IMG/VR virus record: IMGVR_UViG_3300023232_000001 | Location: 1-51,645 of that record | Source: a virus | Taxonomy: Duplodnaviria > Caudoviricetes | Length of the DNA stretch: 51,645 nucleotides | Reading direction: 5' to 3' (one strand) | Shown: positions 2,583 through 51,552 of the stretch, one piece after another | Layout: every line of letters begins with the position of its first letter | Numbering within the stretch: the stretch's first letter is position 1 | Translations under genes and position numbers: made by a program | The notes under the pieces: generated by a model | The model's database searches: none | Told to the model about the DNA's origin: nothing | Seen by the model: the letters and a program-made list of their open reading frames with translations, nothing else

Positions 2583-3884
2583 ATGTTCGATAATGAAATA
2601 ATATCACCAAACAGTAAAATAAAAAAAATAAGGAAACAATTTCTTAGAGCAACTCAGGAAGAAATTGCATATAATGTGTGCACCAAAACAAATATATCCA
2701 AAATTGAAAGCGGAAAACAAAAATTAACATTTTCTTTAGCAGCTGGACTTGCAAAAAACTTTAATAGAATTGCAGCCGAAAAAAAAATGGATATAGAAGA
2801 AATAACCGCCGAATGGCTGATGAAAGATGAATCAAACAAAGCAAATGAAATGTTTGAACAGATTCTTAACGAATTAAATGGAATAAATAAACTAATTATA
2901 TTCGAGGAAAGACTAGCTGATGCAGAAAGCTTAATAGAAAAACATACTATTTTAGGTAATAAAAAAATACAGTTGTACAAATTAGCATCTTTTTTTTACT
3001 TTGATAAATTTATTTACTCTAAATCTGATGAAATGTGTACTATTGGATTAAAGATATGCTTTAGCAATCAAAATTACTTAGAAGAAGCACATTTTTATGT
3101 TACTAAAGCTAGAAATAATTTTAATAAAGGTAGGTTTAAATATGCTCTAGAGCAATTAGAATATGCAGAAAGAATAAATAGGCAAGAGGATAATGAAGAA
3201 CTCTTTGATAGAATCTATTTTAACAAAGCAATAGTGTATAATAATATGAAAGAATATACTAATGCATTTAAACAATTAGACATCTTAAAGGATAAACACA
3301 ATCTAAACAAAAGGAAGCTATTAGATATAAAAATGTTATATGCTAATTGTTTGATGGATCAAAAAAGTTTTGACAAGGCCGAAAAAGAATATATAAGTAT
3401 ATTAGAACCAGCGATGCAACTTGATGATAAAGAAATACTATCATTGGCATACAGGAATTTGTCTGAATTATATCTATTACAAAAAAAATATAAAGACGCA
3501 GAAATATCTATAAAAGAATCTTTAAGGAACAATGATGAAAATAGACATCTTAATTCTGATTTAATATTTGCATCAAAAGTGATGAAAAGTGTTAATAAAG
3601 ATGCTACAATATATCTATTACAAGCACTAGATATATGCGAAAAAAAAGATAAAGAAAATTTAAGGTTAATCGAAAAAATAATATTTGAACTTATAAAAAT
3701 TTATGAAGAAAGAGACGATGAAGAAGGAATTGATTTTTTCGTTCAAAAATCATACGAACTGAATATAGACTATAGCTTAATATTACAACATCTTGCAGAA
3801 TACTATAGATATAGCAATATAGAAAAAAGTGTATATTTAAGTGAAAAATCTATGAATAAACATAACGAAATTAAAGATTTTTAA
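2583..3884 (+). CDS. RRNPP-family peptide-sensing regulator (XRE HTH + TPR repeats), AimR/Qsr-like
   Basis: N-terminal KIKKIRK..TQEEIA..CTKTNISKIESG HTH; TPR-like helices (YFNKAIVY, AYRNLSELY); 433 aa; followed by a small secreted peptide gene. Confidence 0.88.
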   Translation: MFDNEIISPNSKIKKIRKQFLRATQEEIAYNVCTKTNISKIESGKQKLTFSLAAGLAKNFNRIAAEKKMDIEEITAEWLMKDESNKANEMFEQILNELNGINKLIIFEERLADAESLIEKHTILGNKKIQLYKLASFFYFDKFIYSKSDEMCTIGLKICFSNQNYLEEAHFYVTKARNNFNKGRFKYALEQLEYAERINRQEDNEELFDRIYFNKAIVYNNMKEYTNAFKQLDILKDKHNLNKRKLLDIKMLYANCLMDQKSFDKAEKEYISILEPAMQLDDKEILSLAYRNLSELYLLQKKYKDAEISIKESLRNNDENRHLNSDLIFASKVMKSVNKDATIYLLQALDICEKKDKENLRLIEKIIFELIKIYEERDDEEGIDFFVQKSYELNIDYSLILQHLAEYYRYSNIEKSVYLSEKSMNKHNEIKDF

Positions 3885-3976
3885 AAAAAAAATATTTTTA
3901 TCGTAAATTCTATGATTATGGTACAATATTAAGTGTAAATTAGTCGACAGACTTAACTTTTCAAGGAGGTATTTTA

Positions 3977-4138
3977 ATGAAAAAAGTTGCATTATCGTTA
4001 GTTATGGGAGTTATGCTTTTAGCAAGCACAATAACAGTACAAGCTAAAACAGTAGATACTTCAAAAAGCTCAACAATAGCACCTACAACAAACTCAACCA
4101 TCTACCATCTTCAAAGCGAAAATCCAACAGGCTGGTAA
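3977..4138 (+). CDS. Secreted signalling pro-peptide, 53 aa (MKKVALSLVMGVMLLASTITVQAKTVDTSKSSTIAPTTNSTIYHLQSENPTGW)
   Basis: Not in ORF track; RBS AAGGAGG; Sec signal (MKK + hydrophobic core + VQA); directly after receptor; followed by terminator. Confidence 0.88.
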   Translation: MKKVALSLVMGVMLLASTITVQAKTVDTSKSSTIAPTTNSTIYHLQSENPTGW

Positions 4139-5513: not shown

Positions 5514-6296
5514 ATGAGTGAAAAAAATGAAATACAAATAATCGGTGTTCTATCAAAAGGTTATGGAATAATGCCTAAAATGGTTGCTTTAGATAAAAAT
5601 TTATCTCTAGAAGCAAAGGGAATTTATTCATTTCTAACTTCATTCTCAGGAGTAGGACAAGGTGTATTTCCATCAGTAGAAATAATTCTTAATTATTTAA
5701 AAATATCGGAAAAAAGATATTATAAATATAGAAAAGAACTGATTCAAAATGGTTATATAACTGTAAAACCTAGGTATTGTGATAATAAAAGAATAAGTAA
5801 TCTCTATATATTGCATATGGATAAAATAGTACCCAGTCAAATTGAACGTGTACAAATTGAAGGCGTACAAATTGAAAGCGTACAAATTGACGTCAGTAAC
5901 AATAACAACTTAAACAATAACAACTTAAACAATAACAATATACAACAACAACTAATCAAAATAGATAATGTTCTTTCAGACTTTAAAATTAAAGAAAGAG
6001 AATCGATTAAAAAATATTGTATTGAAAATAATGTTTCTTCTGTTGTTGTTGTTGAAAAGTTAGAAATATTAAAAACTATGAAAACAATAAGGAATAAAGT
6101 TGGTGCATTACTTACAGCTCTAAAAGAAGATTGGAAACCGACAAAAGAGACAAGCAATACTAATTTAAAGTTTAATAATTTTGAAGGAAGAGAAAAAAAT
6201 GAAAGATATGCTTACTTGGAGGAACAATGTTTATTAGGTCAAGCAAGTGAGGCAGAACGAATTGAATTTGATGAAATGAGAGGTGGAAGTTTATGA
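5514..6296 (+). CDS. Replication initiator protein 2 (lytic replisome organiser)
   Basis: GYGIMPK..D..LSLEAKGIY HTH; internal iterons; position in early lytic operon. Confidence 0.82.
   Translation: MSEKNEIQIIGVLSKGYGIMPKMVALDKNLSLEAKGIYSFLTSFSGVGQGVFPSVEIILNYLKISEKRYYKYRKELIQNGYITVKPRYCDNKRISNLYILHMDKIVPSQIERVQIEGVQIESVQIDVSNNNNLNNNNLNNNNIQQQLIKIDNVLSDFKIKERESIKKYCIENNVSSVVVVEKLEILKTMKTIRNKVGALLTALKEDWKPTKETSNTNLKFNNFEGREKNERYAYLEEQCLLGQASEAERIEFDEMRGGSL
5835..5939 (+). repeat. Iterons inside rep2 (putative lytic origin)
   Basis: CAAATTGA at 5838, 5853, 5868, 5883 (15-bp period), followed by AACAATAACAACTTA tandem repeats. Confidence 0.8.
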
Positions 6297-6667: not shown

Positions 6668-7705
6668 GTGGAATATGTAAATGACATTAGCATCAATGAA
6701 GCGGTTATTCATGTGCTAGATAGTAATGGTGAAGAGCCAATACTTAATGAATATAGCTTGGAATTGGATGAAGATACGTATAGATATATATATAGGCACA
6801 TAGAAAAATGTTTAAAAGATGATGATCTTAAGTATGCAAAGTTTAATCAAGAAATAAATATAGTCAAAGAAGTTGTAGAAGACTATTTAAATGGAATAGA
6901 CAGTGATTTGATTAAGTTATCTAAGGAGTTTGCTAGGCAATTGTTCACAATAATGAAGGGGAATGTAAATATACCTCCAGGAGATTTAATAATAGTATCA
7001 ATAACAACAGATCAAGGGCCTATGGTTGCAATACTCAAAATGGATTATGTTAAGAATTTCACCCATGATATTAAATTTGTAAATGAAAAGATAGGTGTAG
7101 GAATAATACCACAGGTTGCAGGGCTTCCTGGTAAAGGTCAAAAGATTCAGAAGGCGGCTTTCATTAAACCTATAAGGCAAGATGAAACATACAATTTATT
7201 CATCTTAGATAAGCAAAAGTCTAGTAAAGAGGATGAATATGGAGCTAACTACTTTATAAATACATTTTTAGATGCAAGTTTAATCACAAACGAAAGAGAT
7301 ATGACAAAGACTTTTTTAAGAGCATCTGAAAATTGGACTAGAAAAAATGTAACAGAAGATGCAGCTAAAGCAGAAACTATTAGAACTACAATTAAAACTA
7401 AGTTGAAGGAAGAAGATACTATAGACATAGAATCTTTGTCAGAAGAACTTTTTAGTGAAGCTCCACAAGTAAAAGAAGACTTCTCAAATTATATAAAACA
7501 ACATGGATTAAATGAAGTTGTAGCAATTGATAAAATTTGGGTAGATAAAAAACTCAGAAGAACAAGGCTGAATATTGATAGGCAGATAGATTTATATATT
7601 AACGATGATATTTATCATGATTCTAGTAAGTTCGAAATTCAAAGAAATGGTGATGGAACTATAAATATAACAATTAAAAATGTTTTGAATTATATAGAAA
7701 AGTAA
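6668..7705 (+). CDS. Nucleoid-associated protein (YejK/NdpA-like family)
   Basis: INEAVIHVLD, AILKMDY, QKIQKAAFI, ANYFINTFL motifs; 345 aa. Confidence 0.75.
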   Translation: MEYVNDISINEAVIHVLDSNGEEPILNEYSLELDEDTYRYIYRHIEKCLKDDDLKYAKFNQEINIVKEVVEDYLNGIDSDLIKLSKEFARQLFTIMKGNVNIPPGDLIIVSITTDQGPMVAILKMDYVKNFTHDIKFVNEKIGVGIIPQVAGLPGKGQKIQKAAFIKPIRQDETYNLFILDKQKSSKEDEYGANYFINTFLDASLITNERDMTKTFLRASENWTRKNVTEDAAKAETIRTTIKTKLKEEDTIDIESLSEELFSEAPQVKEDFSNYIKQHGLNEVVAIDKIWVDKKLRRTRLNIDRQIDLYINDDIYHDSSKFEIQRNGDGTINITIKNVLNYIEK

Positions 7706-9542: not shown

Positions 9543-10052
9543 ATGGAGATATATGATTTTTATATAACACCAGAAGAATATGAAATTGCAGAGAAAAATG
9601 GAATAAGCAGACAGATGGTAAACAATAGAGTTAGATCATTAGGTTGGAATAAGGAGATAGCATTAACTCAAGAGCCTAATGTTAGAAAGATGTTAGATAA
9701 AGAACTAGTGAAGAAAGCAGAAGAGAATGGAATTGGGAGAGAAACTCTTAGATATAGGATTAATCATGGATGGAATTTAGAAGATGTAGCAACAATTCCA
9801 CCAGTAGATACAACGGAATTAATGAAAAAATTAGGGAAAAAATCAAGAAAATATCCCATGGAACTAATTGAACTAGCAAAATCTAATGGGATAAGTATAA
9901 AGACTTTTTATGAAAGAATTCATACTTACAAATGGGATGTTGATAAAGCAGCAAATACGCCATTAATAATAGGAAAAGAAAGAGCATTAATGGGAGCAAA
10001 GGCATATAGGAAAATTTATGGAAAACCATTTGGGAATGTATCAAGAATTTAA
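9543..10052 (+). CDS. Phage protein with three HTH-like repeats
   Basis: Three copies of A..NGI....R....W....A..P. Confidence 0.7.
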   Translation: MEIYDFYITPEEYEIAEKNGISRQMVNNRVRSLGWNKEIALTQEPNVRKMLDKELVKKAEENGIGRETLRYRINHGWNLEDVATIPPVDTTELMKKLGKKSRKYPMELIELAKSNGISIKTFYERIHTYKWDVDKAANTPLIIGKERALMGAKAYRKIYGKPFGNVSRI

Positions 10053-10075
10053 TAGATGAAAGTGAGGAATATAAG

Positions 10076-10249
10076 ATGTTTGATAATAAAGAATTAACAA
10101 AAATAATGAGTATGGCAGTAAATGAAAGCGTAAATATCCAAAGGGAAATAAATGAATGTGATAATGATTTAGAAAAAGAATCATTGGAAAGAGGTTTAGT
10201 GGTAGTAAATGCTATAGGTGAAAAAGTATCTAAAATTATTAATAGGTAG
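10076..10249 (+). CDS. Hypothetical protein, 57 aa
   Basis: Not in ORF track; RBS GAGGA; MFDNKELTKIMSM.. Confidence 0.6.
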   Translation: MFDNKELTKIMSMAVNESVNIQREINECDNDLEKESLERGLVVVNAIGEKVSKIINR

Positions 10250-10270
10250 TGTAGATTGGAGTAGATCTAG

Positions 10271-10432
10271 ATGATTTCAAATGAAGATTTTAAGAAATTA
10301 TGTGAAATAGATGAAAAGATGCTTAATAATAAAATTGTTACAACTGAAGAATTACAAGAAAGAACTAGAATTATAAAAGAATTTAATAGAGAAATAGATA
10401 AAGCATATTTAAAAAATTCGAAAATAATTTAA
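10271..10432 (+). CDS. Hypothetical protein, 53 aa
   Basis: Not in ORF track; RBS GGAG; MISNEDFKKLCEID..; stop abuts cassette motif. Confidence 0.6.
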   Translation: MISNEDFKKLCEIDEKMLNNKIVTTEELQERTRIIKEFNREIDKAYLKNSKII

Positions 10433-10462
10433 TGCGTAATGCGTTTAAAGCAGGGTGATAGT

Positions 10463-10768
10463 GTGAAGCTTAAAGAGGAACTTAATAAATATTCCAAAGA
10501 AGCAATAATAGAAGCTGTAGTTAATTCAGGAATATTTATACTAAGAGGTAAAGAAATTTTAGATGAAGTCATAACTAAAGAAATAGATTTGTTGTATAAA
10601 AAGCAAGAAGAATTATTAACAGTAAAAGATGATCCTATTAAAAGTAATATGTCTGCCAAAGAATGTTTAAAGGTGATTGAGCAAAGACAAGCAAGGCATA
10701 AAAAATATATGAATATATCAAAACAAACTCAAAAATTACAAGATAAATTGTATGGTAAATATTCGTAA
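10463..10768 (+). CDS. Hypothetical coiled-coil protein
   Basis: GTG after AGGGTG; flanked by two boundary motifs. Confidence 0.6.
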   Translation: MKLKEELNKYSKEAIIEAVVNSGIFILRGKEILDEVITKEIDLLYKKQEELLTVKDDPIKSNMSAKECLKVIEQRQARHKKYMNISKQTQKLQDKLYGKYS

Positions 10769-10803
10769 TGTGTAGAAAGTACGTAGCACCAGGAGGTGAA
10801 AAA

Positions 10804-12189
10804 GTGGGATTAAAATTTGTAGATATGTTTTGCGGAATAGGCACTATAAGAATGGGATTTGAACAAGCTGGATGGGAATGTGTCTATTCAATAGAATGGG
10901 ACAAACATAAAAGGAGGATGTATGATGCTATCTTTGGGAAAGAGCCAGAAGGGGCAGATATTAGGACAATTAGACATGATGACATACCTAGCGCAGATTG
11001 CTGGACATTCGGAGCACCATGTCAAGACTTCTCAATTGCTGGAAATAGAGAAGGGCTTGAAGGAGATAGAAGTTCCCTTGTCAGAGAAGTATTTAGACTC
11101 GTTAGGGAAACTAAAGAAGAATATAGACCCCAATGGCTGCTCTATGAAAATGTTAAAGGAATGTTGTCTAGCAATAAAGGACTTGACTACCTCGAAATAC
11201 TCATTGAAATGGAGTCACTTGGGTACGATATTGAATGGCAATTGCTCAACACAAAATATTATGGAGTTCCACAAAACAGGGAAAGAGTGTTCACTCTTGG
11301 ACATCTTAGAGGCAGAGGTGGACGAAAAATATTTCCTATCAGAGGAATTACAGAATCGTCTGACATTAAGGTGATAGGAACTACTGCTGAATCAACAGTA
11401 AGAGAAGATGGTTCTATAATAATGGATAAGTCAACTAGAGCATGGGTACATGATACATCAGGAATTGTTGGTGCATTGGGTGCAATGGAGTATAAACAAC
11501 CAAAACAAATAATGGTTAATGGTCAAGTAAGCTCAGATAAAAGTCAGGCAGGAAAAATTTATAATGCAGATGGTATATTTCCAACAATATGTGCAGGAAC
11601 CCATGGTTATGCTAATGGATTGATTCAAATTGGAGAATTAGATTTAGAAGGATATAATGATTCGTCTAAAAGGGTTTATTCTAGTGATGGAATTGGAAGA
11701 ACTTTAATGGGCGGAGGTGGCTGTGCAAACGATAAAACAGGATTATATATGGTAAGAGCTGTTTTAACTCCTAACAGAATTAAAAAAAGACAAAATGGCA
11801 GAAGGTTTAAGGAACCAGGAGAACCAATGTTTACACTTACAAAGCAAGACGTTCATGGCGTAATGATTACAGAAGCTACTAAGAAAGGCTATGCAAAGGC
11901 TTATGAGGGTGACAGTATTAATTTAACAATGCCCAATAGTAAAACAAGACGTGGAAGAGTAGGTAGGAGAATTGCCAATACATTAGATACTAGTTGTAAT
12001 CAGGGTACTTTAAAACAAGGAAGAATTAGACGGTTAACTCCAAGAGAATGTATGAGATTGCAAGGTGTTTCAGACGAAGTAACAGACAAGCTTATAGCAG
12101 CAAAAATAAGTGATACGCAAATGTATAAAGGTGCTGGTGAGGCATGTACAGTGAATGTCGTTTATGAGATAGCAAAGAAATTAAAGTAA
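10804..12189 (+). CDS. DNA (cytosine-5)-methyltransferase
   Basis: FCGIG, PCQDFS, ENVKG, PQNRERVF, RRLTPRECMRLQG; long variable region; start refined to GTG after GGAGGTG. Confidence 0.95.
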   Translation: MGLKFVDMFCGIGTIRMGFEQAGWECVYSIEWDKHKRRMYDAIFGKEPEGADIRTIRHDDIPSADCWTFGAPCQDFSIAGNREGLEGDRSSLVREVFRLVRETKEEYRPQWLLYENVKGMLSSNKGLDYLEILIEMESLGYDIEWQLLNTKYYGVPQNRERVFTLGHLRGRGGRKIFPIRGITESSDIKVIGTTAESTVREDGSIIMDKSTRAWVHDTSGIVGALGAMEYKQPKQIMVNGQVSSDKSQAGKIYNADGIFPTICAGTHGYANGLIQIGELDLEGYNDSSKRVYSSDGIGRTLMGGGGCANDKTGLYMVRAVLTPNRIKKRQNGRRFKEPGEPMFTLTKQDVHGVMITEATKKGYAKAYEGDSINLTMPNSKTRRGRVGRRIANTLDTSCNQGTLKQGRIRRLTPRECMRLQGVSDEVTDKLIAAKISDTQMYKGAGEACTVNVVYEIAKKLK

Positions 12190-12228
12190 TTCGTAATACT
12201 AAGATTAAAAATAGAAAGGAAGATTTAT

Positions 12229-12594
12229 ATGAGAGAAATATTATTCAGAGGTAAAGATAAATTGGGTATTTGGCATTATGGATATTTACATGCTGATACT
12301 ATAACAGGAGCAGATGGGTATTATATAAATTCAAGAATAAGTGTTAATAATCCTGATTTTGTAGAGGTTGATGAATCAAGTGTAGGACAATCTACAGAAA
12401 TCAATGACATTGATGGGGATAGTATATTTGAAAGAATGACAGTAAATCAAAAAGGAACTGTTACTGGAGACGATACTGATTTTACTGGTGAAGTTGAAAT
12501 GTTAGAAGGCTGTTGGGTTATAAACAACCATAAAGATAATGCTATACCTTTATGGAGTGAAACGGCAGAAAACAAAATTTTAAGTGATATTTAG
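12229..12594 (+). CDS. YopX-family protein (copy A)
   Basis: MREILFRGK..W.YG..VGQ.T..DIDG..IFE. Confidence 0.8.
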   Translation: MREILFRGKDKLGIWHYGYLHADTITGADGYYINSRISVNNPDFVEVDESSVGQSTEINDIDGDSIFERMTVNQKGTVTGDDTDFTGEVEMLEGCWVINNHKDNAIPLWSETAENKILSDI

Positions 12595-12623
12595 TACACA
12601 ATACTAATATGGGAGGTAAATAA

Positions 12624-13010
12624 ATGAGTAGAGAAATTAAGTTTAGAGCATGGATTAAAAACAATAAGAGAATGGAAAGATGCATTGAAGTTAATCCGTT
12701 TTATATAGGCGATTGTGATAGATTTCATTGGAAGCATGAAGAAGTTGAACTTATGCAATATACAGGCTTAAAAGATAAGAATGATAAGGAAATATATGAG
12801 GGAGATATTATTGATGCTAGCTATATAAATCCTATGAGCAATGAAGTCATTAAAAAACATTATTTAATAGAATATGGCGAAGGTCAATACAAAGCCAAAT
12901 TAATAGGTTCAAGCCCTTATGGAGATACATGGATTAATTTTATAAATGAAAAAGGAACGGTTATAGCAAATATTTATGAGAATCCAGAGTTACTAGAAAG
13001 TGAGAAATAA
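12624..13010 (+). CDS. YopX-family protein
   Basis: REIKFRAW..LMQYTGLKDKNDKEIYEGDI..NIYENPELL. Confidence 0.9.
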   Translation: MSREIKFRAWIKNNKRMERCIEVNPFYIGDCDRFHWKHEEVELMQYTGLKDKNDKEIYEGDIIDASYINPMSNEVIKKHYLIEYGEGQYKAKLIGSSPYGDTWINFINEKGTVIANIYENPELLESEK

Positions 13011-13012
13011 CA

Positions 13013-13216
13013 ATGAATATAGGATTAATGATTGCTACAGAAAGAACTAAACAGAATTTATCTACAAAAAAGTTAGCAGAAGCAGCTGGATGCACTTCAA
13101 GAGCTATTGAATATTGGGAAAATGGCAAAAGAGGGATAAGCCTTGAATATGCAGATAAAATATTTAAAGCACTGGGAAAAACAATTACTATTGGTGTTAA
13201 AAATGATGAACAATAG
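13013..13216 (+). CDS. XRE-family HTH protein
   Basis: LSTKKLAEAAGCTSRAIEYWENGKR. Confidence 0.85.
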   Translation: MNIGLMIATERTKQNLSTKKLAEAAGCTSRAIEYWENGKRGISLEYADKIFKALGKTITIGVKNDEQ

Positions 13217-13254
13217 TTCGTAATACTACTATTTTAATAGAAAGGAAGATTTAT

Positions 13255-13617
13255 ATGAGAGAAATATTATTTAGAGGTAAAGATAGATTAGGTATTTGGC
13301 ATTATGGATATTTACATGCTGATACTATAACAGGAGCAGATAAGTATTATATAAATTCAAGAATAAGCGTTAATAATCCTGATTTCATGGAAGTTGATAA
13401 ATCAAGCATAGGACAATTTACAGGAGCCAATGACATTGATGGGGATAGTATATTTGAAAGAATGACAGTAAATCAAAAATCATCAGTACTTGGTGATGAA
13501 GATGTTAATTTTACTGGTGAAGTTAAATTTTATGATGGTTGTTTTTGGATTGATAATGGAAAAGATGCAATTCTTTTGTGTAATGAAATACGTGAAAACA
13601 AAATAATAGAAGATTAA
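13255..13617 (+). CDS. YopX-family protein (copy B, paralog of 12229)
   Basis: Near-identical N-terminal half and RBS region to copy A. Confidence 0.8.
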   Translation: MREILFRGKDRLGIWHYGYLHADTITGADKYYINSRISVNNPDFMEVDKSSIGQFTGANDIDGDSIFERMTVNQKSSVLGDEDVNFTGEVKFYDGCFWIDNGKDAILLCNEIRENKIIED

Positions 13618-13651
13618 TGCACAATACTAAAGTGCAAGGAGGGATAGAGAG

Positions 13652-14113
13652 ATGAATATAAATGAAATGGCTAAAACAATGACAAGAAGTGAATTCATGA
13701 ACTGGTATGAAGATTTTAGTGAACAGCTTTGTCCGGTTAGCTTTAATATAGAACAAACTACAATTACAGATGAAGAAAGGTGCAAAAAATATAACGGAAA
13801 CTGTATTGATTGCATTGAAGAAGCAATTAAAAATATTAAATTTGTGGATGGTATAAAATTAAAAGGTGAGATAAAGCTAGGACAACATACAACTAATAAA
13901 GATGATTATTGGATTTATGATAATGATGGATTAATCTGCGGATCATTAGGAATAAATGAAGATAAAGTTAAAGAGTTAATTAAAAGAGCAAATAAAGAAA
14001 TACCTATGGAAGTAATAAAAATTAAAGGTGTGTCAAGTCAAGCATGTCCAGTGTGCAAATATAATGTAAATTGGAATTATTGTTCTAATTGTGGCCAAAG
14101 GATTAAATATTAA
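13652..14113 (+). CDS. Hypothetical protein with C-terminal zinc ribbon
   Basis: CPVC..YCSNCGQRI. Confidence 0.7.
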   Translation: MNINEMAKTMTRSEFMNWYEDFSEQLCPVSFNIEQTTITDEERCKKYNGNCIDCIEEAIKNIKFVDGIKLKGEIKLGQHTTNKDDYWIYDNDGLICGSLGINEDKVKELIKRANKEIPMEVIKIKGVSSQACPVCKYNVNWNYCSNCGQRIKY

Positions 14114-14170
14114 TTCTACACAATACGATATCAATATGTAGATATCGTGTATTAAATTGGAGGGAAATTT

Positions 14171-14425
14171 ATGAAAGCAAAAAGAGTAAAGGAAATATTA
14201 AAAAATATAAATGAAATATTGAAAGATGTAGATGATGATTTAGAAGTATTCGTAAGAAATTCAGTTAATCCTTGTGGAAACATACAGGAATTAGAGCAGA
14301 TTGAATTATCAACCTATGGCTTCTTTGGAACAAATATACCTTGTTTAATATTAAATACTGACAGTTCTAAGAAGTTGGAAAGAAATGAAAATGATGAAGT
14401 CATTGAATTTATTACAGAAAAGTAA
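14171..14425 (+). CDS. Hypothetical phage protein
   Basis: RBS GGAGGG; between boundary motifs. Confidence 0.65.
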   Translation: MKAKRVKEILKNINEILKDVDDDLEVFVRNSVNPCGNIQELEQIELSTYGFFGTNIPCLILNTDSSKKLERNENDEVIEFITEK

Positions 14426-14470
14426 TTTGATACTACACAATTCTTATAATTGGAGAAGAAAGGGAATATT

Positions 14471-14686
14471 GTGAAAAGTAAAGAAGTGAAGGATTTAATA
14501 AAAGATTGTACAAGCAAAATGAGTATTGACATAGATCGAATACCTAAAGATAAATCAATATTAATAGCAAATGATATAGGTAAAATATTATTGAAACATA
14601 ATTTAGAATTTACATATGGAGGTATCGGTGAAGGCTTTACTGATAAAATATGTGGAATTCAATTTGAAATAAAAGTTGAAGAATAA
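14471..14686 (+). CDS. Hypothetical phage protein
   Basis: GTG after AAGGGA. Confidence 0.6.
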   Translation: MKSKEVKDLIKDCTSKMSIDIDRIPKDKSILIANDIGKILLKHNLEFTYGGIGEGFTDKICGIQFEIKVEE

Positions 14687-14860
14687 AATCAATAAAGTGT
14701 AATAGCAAGCATAGAAAGTGTGTACACACACTTTCTAGAAAAGCAGGATTCGTGTCGGACAAGTCCAACACATCTGTTTAATATTCATTAAAATTTATAA
14801 CTAAGGGTATACCCTTAAACCCAGAACAAATGAATTTTAAAAGTGAAGGTTAGGTAAAGT

Positions 14861-15211
14861 ATGAGATTATTAATGCACATATTAAAGAGAAATAATAAGC
14901 TAAATATCGATAATGAAACCCTTCCAATGGAAGAGATATCAAAAAAGTTAGAAGAAGAATTTAAAGAAGTTGTTGAAGCAGCAGAAAATTATAGCAAAGA
15001 TAAAACATTATCAAATCTGAAAGAAGTAATAAGAGAAACTTTTGATGTTGTACAGATATGTATCCTCCTTTTATGGAGATGTAATAGAGCAGCAAAGGAT
15101 TTTGATTATCCTGAATTACTTGAAGAAATAAATATTCAACATAAAGATAAGTTAATTTCAGAGAGGGAATGGATTATTGAAACTGGTATTGAAATTGATA
15201 TTAAAGAATAA
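14861..15211 (+). CDS. MazG-like all-alpha NTP pyrophosphohydrolase
   Basis: KLEEEFKEV ... RETFDVVQ (EExxE..ExxD pattern). Confidence 0.55.
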   Translation: MRLLMHILKRNNKLNIDNETLPMEEISKKLEEEFKEVVEAAENYSKDKTLSNLKEVIRETFDVVQICILLLWRCNRAAKDFDYPELLEEINIQHKDKLISEREWIIETGIEIDIKE

Positions 15212-16076: not shown

Positions 16077-16244
16077 ATGACAGTAAAACGTATTTTAAGG
16101 GAAAACGATGTTGGCAGCTATAATAAATTGATGAAAATTAAAGATAAAAAGAAAGATGAGAAATTAAGTGAGCGTGAAATAGAAGAGTTAATGTCTCATT
16201 CTTCCTATAAAAGACATAAGGGTGCGATGAAGCAGGTGAAGTAA
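16077..16244 (+). CDS. 55-aa protein coupled to recombinase
   Basis: Not in ORF track; RBS AAAGGGGG; ..EELMSHSSYKRHKGAMKQVK; TAATG overlap. Confidence 0.65.
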   Translation: MTVKRILRENDVGSYNKLMKIKDKKKDEKLSEREIEELMSHSSYKRHKGAMKQVK

Positions 16245-16897
16245 TGGAAGAAGAGAAAAAAAGGGATTGGGAGAAGGGAACAGCAGCACCTATTCCGGAT
16301 AATAAATATGAAAAATTCAAAGAAGAATTAAAAGAATATAGCAAAAAGTATTCGGATAGAAATTTCACTCTATTTATGTTGGCAAGAGCAACAGGATATA
16401 GATTAGGGGATCTAGTCGGATTAACTGTAGGGCAAATAGAAGATGCGCTTGATGAAGGACGTTTTTTAATTCAGGAAAGTAAGCAGTACAAGCAATGGCT
16501 ATCTAATTTAAGTAAATATCCCAATAGGCCATGCCCTAAAAAAAGAGATGCTGATATAGAAAAACCATTAAGAGATGTATTAGAAAAATATATAGCTAAA
16601 AAGAAGAGAAAAGATTTCGCATTTCCTTCAAATAAAGGAGATGGAAGTGAATATATTAGTCCAAAATCATATAGTGCAATACTTACTGCAGTTGGAAAGA
16701 AAATGAATCTGAGGCATATAAGTGGACATAGTCCTAGAAAAACATATGCGACAAAGATATATGAAAAGTCAGGGCATGATATTGAGACTGTTAGGATAGC
16801 TTTAGGACATAAAAGCATAGAGGAAACAAAACTATATTTAGGAACAAAAAATAAGATGAAAAGGGATGCTGCAAAGATGGCTGCAGAAGGAATTTAA
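16244..16897 (+). CDS. Short tyrosine recombinase (catalytic domain only)
   Basis: TGYR.GDL, HSPRKT, LGHKS..ET..Y; 217 aa, no arm- or core-binding N-terminal domains. Confidence 0.92.
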   Translation: MEEEKKRDWEKGTAAPIPDNKYEKFKEELKEYSKKYSDRNFTLFMLARATGYRLGDLVGLTVGQIEDALDEGRFLIQESKQYKQWLSNLSKYPNRPCPKKRDADIEKPLRDVLEKYIAKKKRKDFAFPSNKGDGSEYISPKSYSAILTAVGKKMNLRHISGHSPRKTYATKIYEKSGHDIETVRIALGHKSIEETKLYLGTKNKMKRDAAKMAAEGI

Positions 16898-17275: not shown

Positions 17276-18031
17276 ATGGATTTTGGAGGAAGAAAAGAAA
17301 TATTTAGAGCCTTAGTTGGTTCTCATAATTATAATTTAAATACTGAAACAAGTGATAAAGATTACAAAGTGTTTGTAGCACCAACTTTTGATGATTTATA
17401 TTTTAATAATCAATTTAGTAAATCATATATAGGACAAGTAGAGGATTTTGATGTACATGATATAAGAAAAACAAGTTCTTTATGGTGGAAAGCAAATGTT
17501 AATTTTCTTGAAGTTCTATTCTCGGAAGAAAGTTCCATTAATCTAAAATTAAATGCTGACAGTAAAAGTTGTTTAACAACCATATTTAGACATAGAGATG
17601 AAATTGCAAAAATGAACTTACCTTATCTTTATGATGCTTGTATTGGAATGCATATCATTAAAAAGAAACAAGTAGATAAAGGTACAGAGGGTACACAATA
17701 TCTACTTGAGAAATATGGATATGATACTAAACAAGCAATGCATAGTTTAAGAATACTTGATTTTCTTCATAGGTTTGCACAAAGTGACTTCAATGATTTT
17801 AAATATGCAATAAAATATGACTTGAATGACCAACAAGATTGGTATGGGAAATATCTATTATCTGTTAAAGCAGGAGAGTTATCAAAATACGAATATATAA
17901 AGGAATCTGAGTACCAATTAAAATGGATTGAGGATACTTTTAAGACTTTATATAAAGAGCAAAAACCAAATGAAGAAACCAACCAATATTTATTAAAAAT
18001 GATAAAACAAATAGTAAAGAATGAACTATAG
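17276..18031 (+). CDS. Pol-beta-superfamily nucleotidyltransferase (RlaP/Nuc-transf-like)
   Basis: GSHNYNLNTETSDKD, N.NFLEVL, GYDTKQAMH.LR. Confidence 0.8.
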   Translation: MDFGGRKEIFRALVGSHNYNLNTETSDKDYKVFVAPTFDDLYFNNQFSKSYIGQVEDFDVHDIRKTSSLWWKANVNFLEVLFSEESSINLKLNADSKSCLTTIFRHRDEIAKMNLPYLYDACIGMHIIKKKQVDKGTEGTQYLLEKYGYDTKQAMHSLRILDFLHRFAQSDFNDFKYAIKYDLNDQQDWYGKYLLSVKAGELSKYEYIKESEYQLKWIEDTFKTLYKEQKPNEETNQYLLKMIKQIVKNEL

Positions 18032-18198
18032 TAATTCGCAATACTAATAAATAGGGGAAATCAAATGAGTATCAAAATTAACGCAGAAAGAAAAAGTATT
18101 AAAAGTTATTGATATTCTATTTTAAATCTGATATATTTACAGTATCAAATAAAACGGTCGTTAGAATAAATACTATATTTTAATATGAGGTGAAAGAT

Positions 18199-18900
18199 AT
18201 GAATAAAATATATGGTTATTGTAGAATATCAACTAACAAGCAATCAATTGAGAGACAACATAGAAATATATTATCAGAATATCCAAACTCAATGATAATC
18301 GATGAAGTATTTACTGGAACAAAAATTGAAACTAGAAAAGAACTTACAAAATTATTAAGTAAGATATCTGAAGGAGATATAATAGTTTTTGATTCAGTAT
18401 CACGTATGAGTAGAAATGCTGATGAAGGATATAAACTATATGAAGATCTATTCAATAAAGGAATAGAATTAGTATTCTTGAAAGAGCAGCACATAAATAC
18501 ATCGACATATAAGAAAGCATTAACTAATAATATAGAAATGACTGGAACTAATGTTGATTTCATATTAGAGGGAATAAATAAATATTTATTAGCATTGGCC
18601 AAAGAACAAATTAAATTAGCGTTTATTCAATCAGAAAAAGAAGTCGAAGATCTTCATCAAAGAACAAAGGAAGGTATAGAAACAGCAAGATTAAATGGTA
18701 AGCAAATAGGGCAGAAAAAAGGCATTAAGATTATAACTAAGAAAAGCGTTGAAGCTAAAGAACATATTTTGAAGTATAGTAAGGATTTTCAAGGAACTCT
18801 AAATGATATTGAGGTTATGAAATTAATAGGACTTGCAAGGAATACCTATTATAAATATAAAAAAGAGTTAGTTCAAGAATTAGAAACAGATATAAATTAA
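18199..18900 (+). CDS. Serine recombinase, resolvase/invertase family (1 of 4)
   Basis: YGYCRIST..Q..RQ, DSVSRMSR, C-terminal HTH RNTYYKY. Confidence 0.92.
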   Translation: MNKIYGYCRISTNKQSIERQHRNILSEYPNSMIIDEVFTGTKIETRKELTKLLSKISEGDIIVFDSVSRMSRNADEGYKLYEDLFNKGIELVFLKEQHINTSTYKKALTNNIEMTGTNVDFILEGINKYLLALAKEQIKLAFIQSEKEVEDLHQRTKEGIETARLNGKQIGQKKGIKIITKKSVEAKEHILKYSKDFQGTLNDIEVMKLIGLARNTYYKYKKELVQELETDIN

Positions 18901-18915: not shown

Positions 18916-19958
18916 ATGTTTTATCAACAGCTCTCATTATTCAATGAAATAGAAAAATGTAGATATGGAAACGCAATATTAAAATGTCAATTTTGTGGTG
19001 CTGAAGGAACAACAGATGATTTTGAATTAGATTTTATAAATAATAATGGTTTTTGGTGCCCGGATTGTGATGGACATACCTTTTTCAATAAAGAAGATAA
19101 CAATAAAAGAAAATTCACTCTTATACTAGAAGATAAAAGTAAAAGACATATAGTTCATTATAAAGCTCCTATTAAGTTTAATAAAAGGATTTCTCCTTTG
19201 CGATATCCTGGGGGAAAGAGTAAGTTAACAGATTACTTATATTCAAAGCTACAAGAAAGCAAATGTAATACATTTGTTGAGGCTTGTTCAGGAGGAGGGA
19301 GTTTAGGTTTAGCATTATTAGAAGCTAATGTTATTGACAAGCTGATATTGAATGATGTAGATTATGGAATTTACTCATTATTCTATCTTGCAGTTAATAA
19401 TCCATCTGAACTTATTAGAATGATACAAGAGATTACTCCTGGTTATTTAGATTTTTACAATGCTCAAGAAATCGTAAATGGCCAATATGATAGTTGTAAT
19501 ATACTAACTGCAGCTTGGAGCTGTTTAGTCGTAAATAGGTTAGCTTTTTCAGGTATATGTAAAGCTGGACCGCTTGGAGGTAAAAAAGATAAAAACATTG
19601 ATAAATTGTTATCAAGATGGAATTCAACAGTTTTAATTAATAGAATAAATCAAATTCACAATATGAAATCAAGGATAGAAGTTTCCAATATAGATGCAGA
19701 AGAACTTATTGAGGAAATGTATTACTTAGAAAATACAACTATCTTTATAGATCCACCATATTTTGAAATAAAGGTAAAGACCTATATAATTGTTATTATA
19801 CTACTGAGGATCATATATCACTTGCAACATTATTAGATACATTGCATATGGGAATACCTGGTGCAGATATTATTTTAACATATGATAATCAAAAGTATAT
19901 TAAAGAACTTTATTATTGGCCAATGATAGAAAAAATAAGTAGAGTATATTCAATTTGA
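18916..19958 (+). pseudogene. Dam-like (D12 class) N6-adenine methyltransferase with N-terminal Zn finger; frameshifted after DPPY
   Basis: SPLRYPGGK, DPPY; expected C-terminus (KGKDLY..DH..LA..LTYDN) continues in the -1 frame from about 19768 to TGA 19958. Confidence 0.8.
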
Positions 19959-20006
19959 TTTTAAGCAGTAACACACAATATTAATATGATAATTAATGTA
20001 TAGAAT

Positions 20007-21054: not shown

Positions 21055-21235
21055 AAAAATTTAGTGTCTATAAATCATATGAATTGATAAACAAAGAATA
21101 AGAGAGTAAATTAAAGAGAAAGTGTAGATAAATAGGAGTAATTATTTATTATTAATGTCTATGATATTTGTATATGATTTTATAGACAGTTATAATAATA
21201 TCATAAGATAAGTTAATCGAAAGGGATTGATAATT

Positions 21236-21865
21236 ATGATATTTGGATATATGAGAATTTCTACACAAAAGGAAAAGCAAACAACTGACCGCCAAAGAAT
21301 AACTTTAGAGCAGTATGCAGCAGCTAATGAATTTACATTTAATGAATTAGTTGAAGAAAGAATTTCAGGAACAATTCAAGCAGATCATAGACCACAATTT
21401 TCTATGTTAAAATCAAAACTTAGAAAAGAGGATATATTAATTATCACCGATATTGATAGGCTAGGAAGAAATGCTGATGATGTTATAATGGAATTTAAAA
21501 AGCTAAAAGTTGAAGGAATAAGAATAATTGCTCTTGATACTCCTTATTTAAATGAATGGGAAAAGATTCAAGATTCTAGCATTTACAATATGATAGCAGA
21601 TATATTTATAACACTTAAGGCACATATGGCCCAACAAGAAAGAGAAAAGATAGTTTCACGTATAAATCAAGGGTTAGCGGTAGCAAAAGCTAGTGGAACA
21701 CAATTAGGGAGACCAAAAGCTGAGTTATCAGATGATTTTATAAAACAATATGATAAATTTAAAAAAGGCGAATATGGGAATATTTCAGCTAGTGGATTTG
21801 CGAAAATGTTAGGCATTGGCAGAAGTACTTTATATAAATATATAAAAATATATGATGAACAATAA
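21236..21865 (+). CDS. Serine recombinase, resolvase family (2 of 4)
   Basis: FGYMRIST..Q..RQ, DRLGR, LGRP, GRSTLYKY. Confidence 0.93.
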   Translation: MIFGYMRISTQKEKQTTDRQRITLEQYAAANEFTFNELVEERISGTIQADHRPQFSMLKSKLRKEDILIITDIDRLGRNADDVIMEFKKLKVEGIRIIALDTPYLNEWEKIQDSSIYNMIADIFITLKAHMAQQEREKIVSRINQGLAVAKASGTQLGRPKAELSDDFIKQYDKFKKGEYGNISASGFAKMLGIGRSTLYKYIKIYDEQ

Positions 21866-24352: not shown

Positions 24353-24952
24353 ATGATATTTGGATATTGTAGATGTTCAACCAATGAATCTAAGCAAGAT
24401 ATAAGTAGACAAGAAAGAGATTTAAAAGCATTAGGTGTTACAGAGAAAAGAAATGTATATAAAGAATATGAAAGCGGTACTAAGCTTAATAGAGTTCAAT
24501 TACAAAGGCTCTTAGATATAGTTGCTGAAGGGGACACTATTGTATCTACAGAAGTATCCAGAATTACAAGAAGTACAAAGCAGCTATGTGAAATAATAGA
24601 ATTTGCAAAGAATAAACGTTTGAGGCTTATATTTGGAACATTCATCGTTGATTGTACAAAAGAACTAGACCCAATGACAGAAGGAATGCTTAAGATGATG
24701 GGTGTATTTTCTGAGATAGAAAGAAATATGATAAGTCAAAGAGTTAAAAGTGGAGTGGCTAATGCAAGAGCTAAAGGTAAAATTGTAGGACGGCCACGAT
24801 TAACATTCAAAAAGATACCTCAGAAGATAAAAGATTTATATGATATATATGATAATGGAACTATTAGTAAAACAGATTATGCTAAGATGTGTAATGTATC
24901 AAGGCCGACACTAGATAAATATTTAAATATAATAAAAGAAGGATGTGTTTAA
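24353..24952 (+). CDS. Serine recombinase, resolvase family (3 of 4), between terL and portal
   Basis: FGYCRCST, SRITRS, GRP, SRPTLDKY. Confidence 0.93.
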   Translation: MIFGYCRCSTNESKQDISRQERDLKALGVTEKRNVYKEYESGTKLNRVQLQRLLDIVAEGDTIVSTEVSRITRSTKQLCEIIEFAKNKRLRLIFGTFIVDCTKELDPMTEGMLKMMGVFSEIERNMISQRVKSGVANARAKGKIVGRPRLTFKKIPQKIKDLYDIYDNGTISKTDYAKMCNVSRPTLDKYLNIIKEGCV

Positions 24953-46006: not shown

Positions 46007-47485
46007 ATGGCAAAGTTTAACAATATGATTATTACAAATAAAGGTCAGAATCTTTACACAAAAGTTCAGGCTGGAGCAGAATTACATTTCACAAAAATTA
46101 TGATTGGTTCAGGAGTAATTGGGAGTATAAATCCAGCAACATTAACAAGATTAATCGAACCTAAATTTGATGGTGGAATTCAATCAATAAGTCCAAATAC
46201 TGAGTTAAAGACTGCTACAATAAGCGTAATGATAAATAATTCAAATGTAATTGAATCTACTTATGTTTGTGAGATGGGATTATTTGCAGAAGATCCAGAT
46301 GACGGAGAAATTTTGTATGGATATACTTCAGCAGATAATTATGGAGATTATATAGCTCCAGCAACAAGTGGTCCTTATAGTTGGAATTATCAAATTATAG
46401 CAGCAGTAGGAAATGCCAGCAATGTAACAGTAGAATTAAGTAATTTAACTTATGACTATGGTGTGATAAGTACTAATACAACACTTTTCTATTTAGCTGG
46501 AGGAAATCAAAAAGAGATTAATAAATCAATTGATAATCTATTTAGGACATACTTAACATCTAATAGTGGTAACATCTATACAATTACAACTTCTAACATA
46601 ACTGCATTAAGTTTAAAGGATGGATTTCCACTTAGTTTAAAAATTAATGCTAATAGTTCTGGTGCTGCAAGTATAAAAATAAATTCATTGAATGCTATAT
46701 TATTAAAAAAAGCTAATGGTTCAGATGTAAAATTATACAAAGATGGTATCTATTCATTTAAATATAATGAAACTACAAAAAATTTTATGTTACAGGGTGA
46801 AGGGGGTGGTGGAGATGCAATAGCAGCACAATTATTAATTAATAAAAAAGCAAATGTTGATGCTGGAGATATAGTTGGCACAATGCCTGATAATGGACCA
46901 CTAAATGCTCAATTGCCGATAAACGGTATATATGAAATACCAGCCGGATATACTCAAGGTGGAAAAGTAACTCAAAGTATTCCAACAAAAACAGCTGCAA
47001 CAATTACTCCTAGTACAGTTGATCAAGTAATAGCAGCAGGACAATATATACAAGAACCTCAAATTATAAAAGGTGATCCTAACTTAATACCAGCAAATAT
47101 ACCGCTAAATAAAACTATATTTGGAGTTACAGGTACAACAGAAATGTTTAAACACGAAATAATATCATCTAGTTATAAACCAGATGGTCTAGGGCATGGA
47201 GTACAGATGGCATTTCAACTATTAGGGACTCCTGTTGTTATAATATTTGCCGGATGTATAATGTTAATAAATCATAATAGAATAATAATGGAACATCCAA
47301 CTCTCCAAACAAGTGCTGATGTAGCTACAGGTAGCGATGGCATGTCTACTTATCGCGCAAGTTTTAATCAACCAATGAATGAGAATTACATTAGTTACGA
47401 TGAAAGGACAAAAATATTTACGCTAGATTGTTGGCTACCGCTTGGAGATCCTTTTCAAATAGAATATTATTATTTACCTAATTAG
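46007..47485 (+). CDS. Tail fibre protein 2 (baseplate-anchoring N-terminus)
   Basis: ITNKG..FTKI.IGSG, EMGLFAEDPD.GEILY, NFMLQGEGGG. Confidence 0.82.
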   Translation: MAKFNNMIITNKGQNLYTKVQAGAELHFTKIMIGSGVIGSINPATLTRLIEPKFDGGIQSISPNTELKTATISVMINNSNVIESTYVCEMGLFAEDPDDGEILYGYTSADNYGDYIAPATSGPYSWNYQIIAAVGNASNVTVELSNLTYDYGVISTNTTLFYLAGGNQKEINKSIDNLFRTYLTSNSGNIYTITTSNITALSLKDGFPLSLKINANSSGAASIKINSLNAILLKKANGSDVKLYKDGIYSFKYNETTKNFMLQGEGGGGDAIAAQLLINKKANVDAGDIVGTMPDNGPLNAQLPINGIYEIPAGYTQGGKVTQSIPTKTAATITPSTVDQVIAAGQYIQEPQIIKGDPNLIPANIPLNKTIFGVTGTTEMFKHEIISSSYKPDGLGHGVQMAFQLLGTPVVIIFAGCIMLINHNRIIMEHPTLQTSADVATGSDGMSTYRASFNQPMNENYISYDERTKIFTLDCWLPLGDPFQIEYYYLPN

Positions 47486-47614
47486 ATATTAATGTTTCAC
47501 AATAGGAGAAAGGTGCGTAGCAAGTAAACAAAATATATAATCAATATTAGAGGACTTTCAGGAGTCTTTTTTTGTTGCTTATCTTTATAAAATTTGAAGT
47601 AAGGAAGGTGACAC

Positions 47615-50860: not shown

Positions 50861-50883
50861 TATAATAATATGAGGTGGATAGT

Positions 50884-51552
50884 ATGAGTAATTATTTTAG
50901 CTACATGAGAATATCAACAAAAGAGGCATCGGATAAACAAAGTTTTAACAGACAAGAGAAGAGTTTAAAAGCATATGCAGAAAATGACAAAATTGAATAT
51001 ACACTAAGTTTTAAAGATGATTGTACAGGCTCAACATTCAACAGACCTAATTGGATAAGGTTAGAAAGTTTACTCCATGAAGGTGATACAATTATATTTA
51101 AAGAAATATCACGTTTCACAAGACAAGCAGAAGAAGGCTATAAAAAATTCATGGAATTAATGAATAAAGGAATTAATCTTATCTTTATAGATAATATGAC
51201 CGTTTCAACTGATTATATAAAGAATTTAACAAGGGTAGCACATGAACAAGATTTAGTGGCTAAGACTGCATTAGAAAGCACTATAAAATTACTATTAATA
51301 GTTGAATTGGATAGAGTACAGAAAGAGCGTGAGATAATTGTTAAACGCATAAAACAAGGTATTGATGCATCAAACAAAAAAAGTGGTAGAATTAATGGCA
51401 ACTTAGATAAAATGTCTAGTGAGTTGAGAAGTGATATAGTTGAGTTTGTAGGAAATAGAAGTATTAAACAAATTGATTTGATGAATAAACACAATATCAG
51501 CAGAAATACATTAAAAAAATATGTTGAAATAGTTAAAAGTGAGGCTAAATAA
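50884..51552 (+). CDS. Serine recombinase, resolvase family (4 of 4)
   Basis: FSYMRIST..Q..RQ, ISRFTR, SGR, SRNTLKKY. Confidence 0.92.
   Translation: MSNYFSYMRISTKEASDKQSFNRQEKSLKAYAENDKIEYTLSFKDDCTGSTFNRPNWIRLESLLHEGDTIIFKEISRFTRQAEEGYKKFMELMNKGINLIFIDNMTVSTDYIKNLTRVAHEQDLVAKTALESTIKLLLIVELDRVQKEREIIVKRIKQGIDASNKKSGRINGNLDKMSSELRSDIVEFVGNRSIKQIDLMNKHNISRNTLKKYVEIVKSEAK

Follow-up and report, generated by a model that had tools for sequence, protein, structure and literature searches.

The virus record IMGVR_UViG_3300023232_000001, analyzed over all of its 51,645 nucleotides (nt) and called the window below, carries a row of small genes between positions 10430 and 14459 that are separated by a short oriented repeat. 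These repeats belong to a real, recombination-associated family of sites. Taken in total, we consider it quite probable that they serve site-specific tyrosine recombination. With moderate confidence we propose more specifically that they are two-armed Xer-type sites through which accessory genes and the tips of tail fibres are swapped among Clostridium phages, likely by means of a phage-encoded XerA-like recombinase. The gene layout of the window (replication genes, a row of small early genes, terminase, portal, capsid, baseplate, tail fibres, holins, and lysin) is that of a temperate Clostridium-type phage, and the named relatives of its recombinase of 217 amino acids (aa) come mostly from Clostridium and related genera. 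The public runs best matching the window are peat metagenomes, and no RNA dataset occurs among the listed public runs containing window sequence.

The features of the window that bear on this proposal are the following (bp, base pairs; ORF, open reading frame).

10430-10458, + strand: site 1, with left arm, 6-bp overlap (10442-10447), and right arm; opens the array.
10463-10768, + strand: cassette ORF of 101 aa without Pfam or PHROG match; its stop codon falls within the left arm of site 2.
10759-10787, + strand: site 2, a clear two-arm copy with overlap TGTAGA; a peat contig breaks at 10771.
10804-12189, + strand: cassette encoding a C5 cytosine DNA methyltransferase, with a likely GTG start at 10804 and a nested +1 ORF inside.
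12187-12215, + strand: site 3; contig break at 12201.
12229-12594, + strand: cassette with a YopX-like ORF, 90% identical over 264 nt to 13255-13617.
12592-12620, + strand: site 4; contig breaks at 12607 and 12610.
12624-13216, + strand: two-gene cassette, YopX (PF09643) and an HTH_3 protein.
13214-13242, + strand: site 5; contig ends at 13228 and 13235.
13255-13617, + strand: cassette with the second YopX-like paralogue.
13615-13643, + strand: site 6.
13652-14113, + strand: cassette ORF of 153 aa without family match.
14114-14142, + strand: site 7, which alone among the sites folds into a strong local hairpin (z -3.2).
14171-14425, + strand: cassette ORF of 84 aa without family match.
14431-14459, + strand: site 8, which closes the main array; a contig match begins at 14436.
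14471-14686, + strand: terminal array ORF with a likely GTG start; relatives carry a XerA-like gene about here, the window does not.
16244-16897, + strand: tyrosine recombinase of 217 aa consisting of the catalytic domain only, with R53, H162, R165, H189, and Y198 invariant and no SAM domain.
18032-18060, + strand: extra site behind an RlaP-like nucleotidyltransferase gene (17276-18031); the best-scoring window copy, with an overlap that matches the one of site 4.
19969-19997, + strand: extra, weaker site behind a D12 methyltransferase region; contig breaks at 19977 and 19986.
47493-47521, + strand: extra site between a tail-fibre gene (46007-47485) and a holin gene, at the same position as in the cultured phage TPELB_ph1.

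An initial annotation of this DNA had described one oriented motif, TAR-TNCRYAAT-AC, at or just after eight successive stop codons. All eight cores are confirmed in place on the + strand, but the full motif as written is matched by only four of them. The bare 8-mer TNCRYAAT is common in the window, with 19 matches on the + and 27 on the - strand. Enrichment at gene ends had been proposed as a check, and it is found: 10 of the 78 window gene ends carry the motif, whereas 2000 shuffles gave 0.48 on average and never more than 5, although the motif had been chosen post hoc. Out of sample, in related loci, 50 of 405 motif matches lie in gene-end windows where 12 are expected, with a weaker excess for the reverse-complement control (47/888), and the motif offsets peak at +1, -6, and +4, the same as in the window. 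These relatives are the 142 non-redundant representatives, besides the window, of 186 loci collected around the 217-aa recombinase. Here and below, related loci and site pairs are not phylogenetically independent, and the counts ignore kinship.

A site matrix trained on these relatives without the window recovers seven of the eight sites and adds the copies at 18035 and 19972; its contrast between upstream and downstream regions (105/1146 vs 1/1079) is partly circular, the matrix having been trained upstream. The site it misses, at 10762, ranks second of 103,232 positions in a model built on the arms only, in which the first rank goes to a copy at 47496, behind the tail-fibre gene. The three copies at 18035, 19972, and 47496 had been overlooked before. 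All 11 window sites lie on the + strand, in direct orientation, at gene boundaries. A further match at 7631 lies inside an NA37 gene and was excluded from the site count.

The motif is the left arm of a 28-bp site, made of an 11-bp arm, a 6-bp overlap, and an 11-bp inverted arm. When 106 distinct gene-end copies are aligned, an inverted copy of the core appears exactly 8 bp past the core, at positions outside those used for training, and CG occurs at mirror positions 20-21 in 27 of 100 sites, compared to a mean of 0.95 at positions 24-45. The match to the right-arm consensus peaks at a fixed spacing, and does so too when only the 52 sites with the following start codon at least 45 nt away are considered, which argues that the right arm is not a ribosome-binding site (RBS). 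The inverted right arm had gone unnoticed before, and the unit defined previously as motif, RBS, and ORF(s) has to be redrawn: the conserved half belongs to the 3' end of the upstream gene, and the unit comprises right arm, RBS, ORF(s), stop, and left arm.

An indication of exchange comes from alignments of at least 85% identity between related loci, in which an alignment end lies near 43 of 46 motif-bearing gene ends, compared to 127 of 492 motif-less ones; breakpoints in aligned related phages, another check proposed at the outset, do fall at the motif. At site 4, for instance, relatives (L070) retain the upstream gene and switch partner inside the site. Among the peat-contig matches listed (24 of 104), nine of 20 non-adapter loose ends lie inside window sites, which make up 5.8% of the stretch; the other four of the 24 loose ends are presumably library adapter. 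One contig contains a back-joint from 12405 to 12203, which we rejected as a circle, its start not being at a site.

We mapped the crossover in the early arrays by comparing 47 left-sharing pairs (18 groups), alike in the upstream flank only, and 31 right-sharing pairs (15 groups), alike in the downstream flank only, with 235 baseline pairs. Positions 9-11 and 14 are common to both pair classes, with identities of 0.87-1.0 (0.91-1.0 for positions 9-11) against 0.45-0.67 at baseline, and mismatch is tolerated at overlap positions 12-13. Left-sharing pairs are alike through position 14 and return to baseline at 15, and right-sharing pairs, close to baseline at left-arm positions -1, 1, and 3, gain identity at 9. 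The left arm, in other words, tracks the upstream gene and the right arm the downstream gene, and partner sites have positions 9-14 in common. Because positions 9-11 and 14 are shared and the flanks segregate with one arm each, we assign the site an 11-6-11 structure with a central overlap. Three cassettes (1224, 2967, and 339 bp) exist in exactly matching filled and empty forms; in the pair L197 and L265, the empty site consists of the first site's left arm, the identical overlap, and the second site's right arm. Breakpoints, crossover mapping, filled and empty pairs, and two-arm geometry all support the original suggestion that these are recombination sites delimiting exchangeable cassettes.

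The same site occurs inside tail genes. A site-first scan of viral contigs gave 136 loci with a looser pattern and only six with a strict one; the looser pattern fixes parts of the right arm, so that the 28 of 28 GCG codons found there are circular and were not used. These loci contain 28 in-frame sites in 18 large tail-region genes, all in one frame, located where the conserved and variable parts of the gene join. A second direct copy often lies at or after the stop, so that the C-terminal module is flanked, and identical starts of downstream modules are found behind differing upstream sequences. The serine codon at the in-gene arm is TCG in 11 of 11 cases, the sequences being related, though TCA would be allowed and TCG makes up 6% of such codons. 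The overlap inside genes is TAAAGA in 26 of 28 sites, whereas non-genic overlaps are mostly TAAAAA (39/53); this difference would favour exchange over excision, codon constraint being an alternative explanation for that base. In the higher-GC phages L373, L484, L499, L389, and L483 we also observe site-like two-arm sequences in or after tail-like genes, with other overlaps. The site family may extend beyond Clostridium.

Another explanation of the sites is that they are operators of a dimeric regulator, or antitermination or RNA-processing signals, with breakpoints arising secondarily. The sites do punctuate the early operon, and MrpR of phage SPbeta, as described in PMC10516654, is a repressor with a tyrosine-recombinase fold that binds a repeated phage element. 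Nevertheless, both recombinases considered below retain the catalytic residues, unlike MrpR, and the sites lie at gene ends and inside tail ORFs, not at promoters, promoter-like matches being at chance level (29 vs 29.0 expected). Binding alone predicts no 6-bp exchange zone. Rfam returned no match, and the in-frame copies inside tail genes fit poorly with RNA processing or antitermination, which the initial annotation had offered as its alternative. We regard this explanation as quite improbable.

Regarding the enzyme, the nearby catalytic-only recombinase (16244-16897) had been put forward as a possible server of the sites. Its catalytic residues are intact, the lack of a SAM domain does not preclude activity in short tyrosine recombinases, and it stands beside arrays in many relatives, with at least one site in 58 of 81 loci. 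Site arrays and this enzyme are, nevertheless, each found without the other. Recombinases of the 217-aa type occur without site arrays in phiCD38-2, HM T, and CP51, most site-first loci have no such gene within 10 kb, none was seen beside the tail-fibre sites of these loci, and only three of 25 loci collected around the XerA-like gene carry one, leaving 22 without. Score-14 "sites" 55 bp before the catalytic-only gene turned out to be coding look-alikes in the preceding ORF and were rejected, which reduces the sites counted downstream from four to one. The catalytic-only recombinase is thus probably not the cognate enzyme, and the reading in which it is strikes us as very improbable.

The better candidate is found in relatives of the window. 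This XerA-like recombinase is full-length (about 335 aa), with SAM and catalytic domains; its closest solved relatives are archaeal XerA (PDB 4a8e, 5hxy) and XerD, and it scores 204-214 bits with NF040815, just below the cut-off of 220. The catalytic R, HxxR, H, and Y are invariant in both recombinase families. Of 81 long loci, 15 have the XerA-like gene at the downstream end of their array, and in 19 loci with the gene we count 26 sites upstream and one downstream. Loci collected starting from the enzyme (at least 44% identity) show upstream sites in 20 of 25 cases, with 52 sites upstream, one downstream, and two on the other strand. Among low-GC XerA-like loci, 36 of 48 with a small-gene context and 11 of 19 with a tail-like one, as sorted by a crude gene-size rule, have sites upstream, and a site lies at most 500 bp upstream of the gene in 31 of 67, compared to 6-11 of 67 at shifted spacings.

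In cultured phages the gene follows tail-fibre sites. In TPELB_ph1, a Terrisporobacter phage whose XerA-like enzyme is XAO13717.1, a near-perfect site begins at the stop of the large gene that precedes the enzyme gene, at a distance of 206 bp from the latter; the site of phiCp-D is weaker and lies 76 bp upstream. In three distant loci the break falls 238-239 bp before the XerA-like gene, in a sequence with similar arms and a different overlap; two-arm sites sought de novo near distant XerA-like genes are mostly noise. In higher-GC gut phages (L400, L401, and L410) a variable segment flanked by inverted half-site-like repeats occupies the region from 63 to about 1350 bp ahead of the XerA-like gene and is possibly an inversely oriented variant of the system. 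A peat relative (contig X7) runs, from window position 14674, into a hairpin after the window's last array gene; this hairpin resembles the GC-rich one that closes the array before the XerA-like gene in L016, L031, and L111.

Several observations weigh against our proposal. The link between this enzyme and the sites is positional, and its upstream-downstream asymmetry partly reflects the placement of early arrays. Sites are present in 15 of 15 loci with the XerA-like gene and in 43 of 66 without it (p=0.004), but this association is gone within the clade (13/13 vs 25/28, p=0.54), and only two of 44 higher-GC XerA-like loci exceed the 95th-percentile control. The gene is absent from the window, only five of 47 site-bearing records from the site-first scan carry it, and any tyrosine recombinase is missing from seven of 25 near-complete ones. 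The matches listed, which are contigs only, from which rare forms are dropped, include no junction of an excised circle at site boundaries. Partner sites usually have an unbroken run of 7-10 bases in common (positions 5-14), on which microhomology could act as well. Finally, strong sites stand at both ends in only one of 54 simple indels between the anchored related loci, and for this reason clean insertion appears to be rarer than replacement; change also takes other routes.

Such points lend some weight to the reading in which the repeats are conserved linkers from stop codon to RBS, recombined by ordinary homology or microhomology through phage annealing proteins and without a dedicated recombinase. 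The left arm usually contains or follows a stop, unbroken identity between partners reaches about 10 bases, and most site-bearing phages are without the candidate enzyme. Linkers leave unexplained, however, the inverted right arm at its exact spacing, the near-perfect palindromes within tail ORFs with their invariant TCG, the variable arm positions that segregate with one flank only, and the presence of the enzyme next to sites in two genomic contexts. We consider linkers rather unlikely.

Arrays in phages without a recombinase could also be accounted for if host XerC/XerD acted on the sites, as on the dif modules of Acinetobacter. The geometry is the same (11-6-11), and the outer left arm resembles the pdif XerC arms published in Table 1 of PMC13141974. 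The two arms mirror each other, however, with no XerD-type arm, and all sites are direct, unlike those of dif modules. Outside prophage-like regions, host chromosomes hardly ever contain the site, and candidate dif-like sites from five Clostridium genomes, which are unverified and come from a chance-level pattern, score at or below zero on the site model. These candidates are copies of a recurring dif-like sequence (L417-L421), and the pattern used to search for host dif was at control level. According to Kono et al. (PMC3025954), dif prediction failed in two clostridia, and their supplements gave no match for the three Clostridium names searched. We therefore judge action by the host enzymes improbable.

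Returning to the XerA-like recombinase, its rarity could reflect loss combined with action in trans. Remnants of the gene, of 36 aa and 32 aa, occur in L216 (13310-13420, oriented) and G039, which suggests that it has been lost repeatedly. Since the gene is absent from the window and from most site-bearing records, we infer that most arrays are orphaned and that the enzyme acts in trans; the window would be an orphan array borrowing it from a co-resident or co-infecting phage. The enzyme would bind both arms and exchange strands in the overlap, whose identity would determine which sites pair. A cassette (right arm, RBS, ORF, stop, and left arm) could move by excision and insertion or, more often, be transferred by two crossovers between phage genomes, and its expression would depend on read-through from the early operon.

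We also put forward, tentatively and with somewhat more doubt than conviction, that Firmicutes phages share an integron-like system in which a XerA-type recombinase carried by a minority acts in trans on one 28-bp site family, exchanging early cassettes and in-frame receptor-binding domains, with the 6-bp overlap as an address code. If this is true, much mosaicism and host-range change in these phages is site-specific and not a product of random or homologous recombination. The precise gene-boundary mosaicism of temperate phages is a long-standing question, with linkers set against illegitimate recombination, and a defined 28-bp site, with the exchange mapped to 6 bp and a candidate enzyme named, makes it testable. 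Because the site also lies at the in-frame junction of tail receptor-binding modules, one mechanism could underlie the turnover of accessory genes as well as changes of host range in clostridial phages of gut and soil. The site is usable as a marker for accessory cassettes, and the recombinase-site pair is possibly a useful new tool in AT-rich Firmicutes.

Some other features of the window deserve mention. An ORF of 150 aa without Pfam match (10922-11374) is nested in the +1 frame of the C5 methyltransferase gene. Behind the site at 18035 come an RBS and a 15-codon ORF (18065-18112), possibly a truncated cassette, and then a resolvase gene. The latter is one of four separate serine resolvase genes (18190-18900, 21227-21865, 24353-24952, and 50875-51552). 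The D12 adenine methyltransferase gene (18916-19958) shows an apparent 3' frameshift, with an ORF stop at 19836 and a short ORF continuing to 19958, and its best PADLOC match is PD-Lambda-5_B; PADLOC matches in the window are limited to methyltransferases and an HTH protein. A locus search with the protein encoded at 14861-15211 found no relatives. At 2583-4138, a TPR protein gene precedes a 53-aa gene that has a hydrophobic stretch at its N-terminus along with a terminator-like hairpin, a pair that we take to resemble a peptide quorum-sensing receptor and its peptide. Two replication-initiator-like genes (852-1730 and 5514-6296) are alike at their C-terminal ends.

We compared the system with those already known; a full-text search, with most subscription papers and preprint supplements outside it, found no publication describing such a phage site system. 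MrpR and its element SPBRE (PMC10516654) also combine a tyrosine-recombinase-fold protein with a repeated element in a Firmicutes phage. MrpR has lost the catalytic residues and represses, whereas the enzymes considered here keep theirs and the sites mark points of exchange. Modular linkers and the PeSL cassettes of T4-type phages likewise place repeated elements where phage accessory genes swap; according to PMC2839356, PeSLs are promoter and stem-loop elements thought to recombine by homology. The sites of the present phages differ in having neither promoter nor terminator, no + strand terminator having been found in window positions 10000-15000, and in showing recombinase-site geometry. The archaeal XerA/dif single-recombinase system (PMC5357621) is closest to the candidate enzyme in family and structure, has 11-6-11 inverted arms, and often has its gene beside the site. 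It resolves chromosome dimers at one site, in contrast to the 11 co-oriented window copies that bound variable genes. The full-length Xer-like recombinase with intact catalytic residues is found in relatives only, not in the window.

Integrons, to which the array had been likened originally, use attC sites, which are folded single-strand hairpins with RYYYAAC/GTTRRRY consensus boxes. Such boxes occur in none of the 11 window sites, one of which folds strongly and two more at about z -2. With TIGR02249 (IntI, cut-off 265), the window enzyme scores 25 bits and the XerA-like enzymes 70-97 bits. The analogy holds for the arrangement, co-oriented promoterless cassettes showing precise gain and loss at the sites, as in integrons and CALINs, which also have a recombinase at one end and many enzyme-less arrays (PMC9024848). 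It does not extend to the site, which is short and two-armed, without attC hairpins or R boxes, nor to the enzyme, which lies far below the IntI cut-off.

The dif modules, or pdif modules, of Acinetobacter plasmids, served by host XerC/XerD, also hold accessory genes between 11-6-11 Xer-type sites with the crossover within the site; according to PMC13141974, their partners need identical or nearly identical 6-bp spacers, and two-crossover exchange is possible. They are flanked by inversely oriented sites, whereas the phage sites are direct (all + in the window; 52 same-strand upstream vs two minus-strand in the enzyme-first loci), have mirrored arms without a XerD arm, lie in phage genomes and also inside tail ORFs, and are associated with a phage-borne candidate enzyme. 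The system described here functions like an integron or a dif-module system and is a member of neither.

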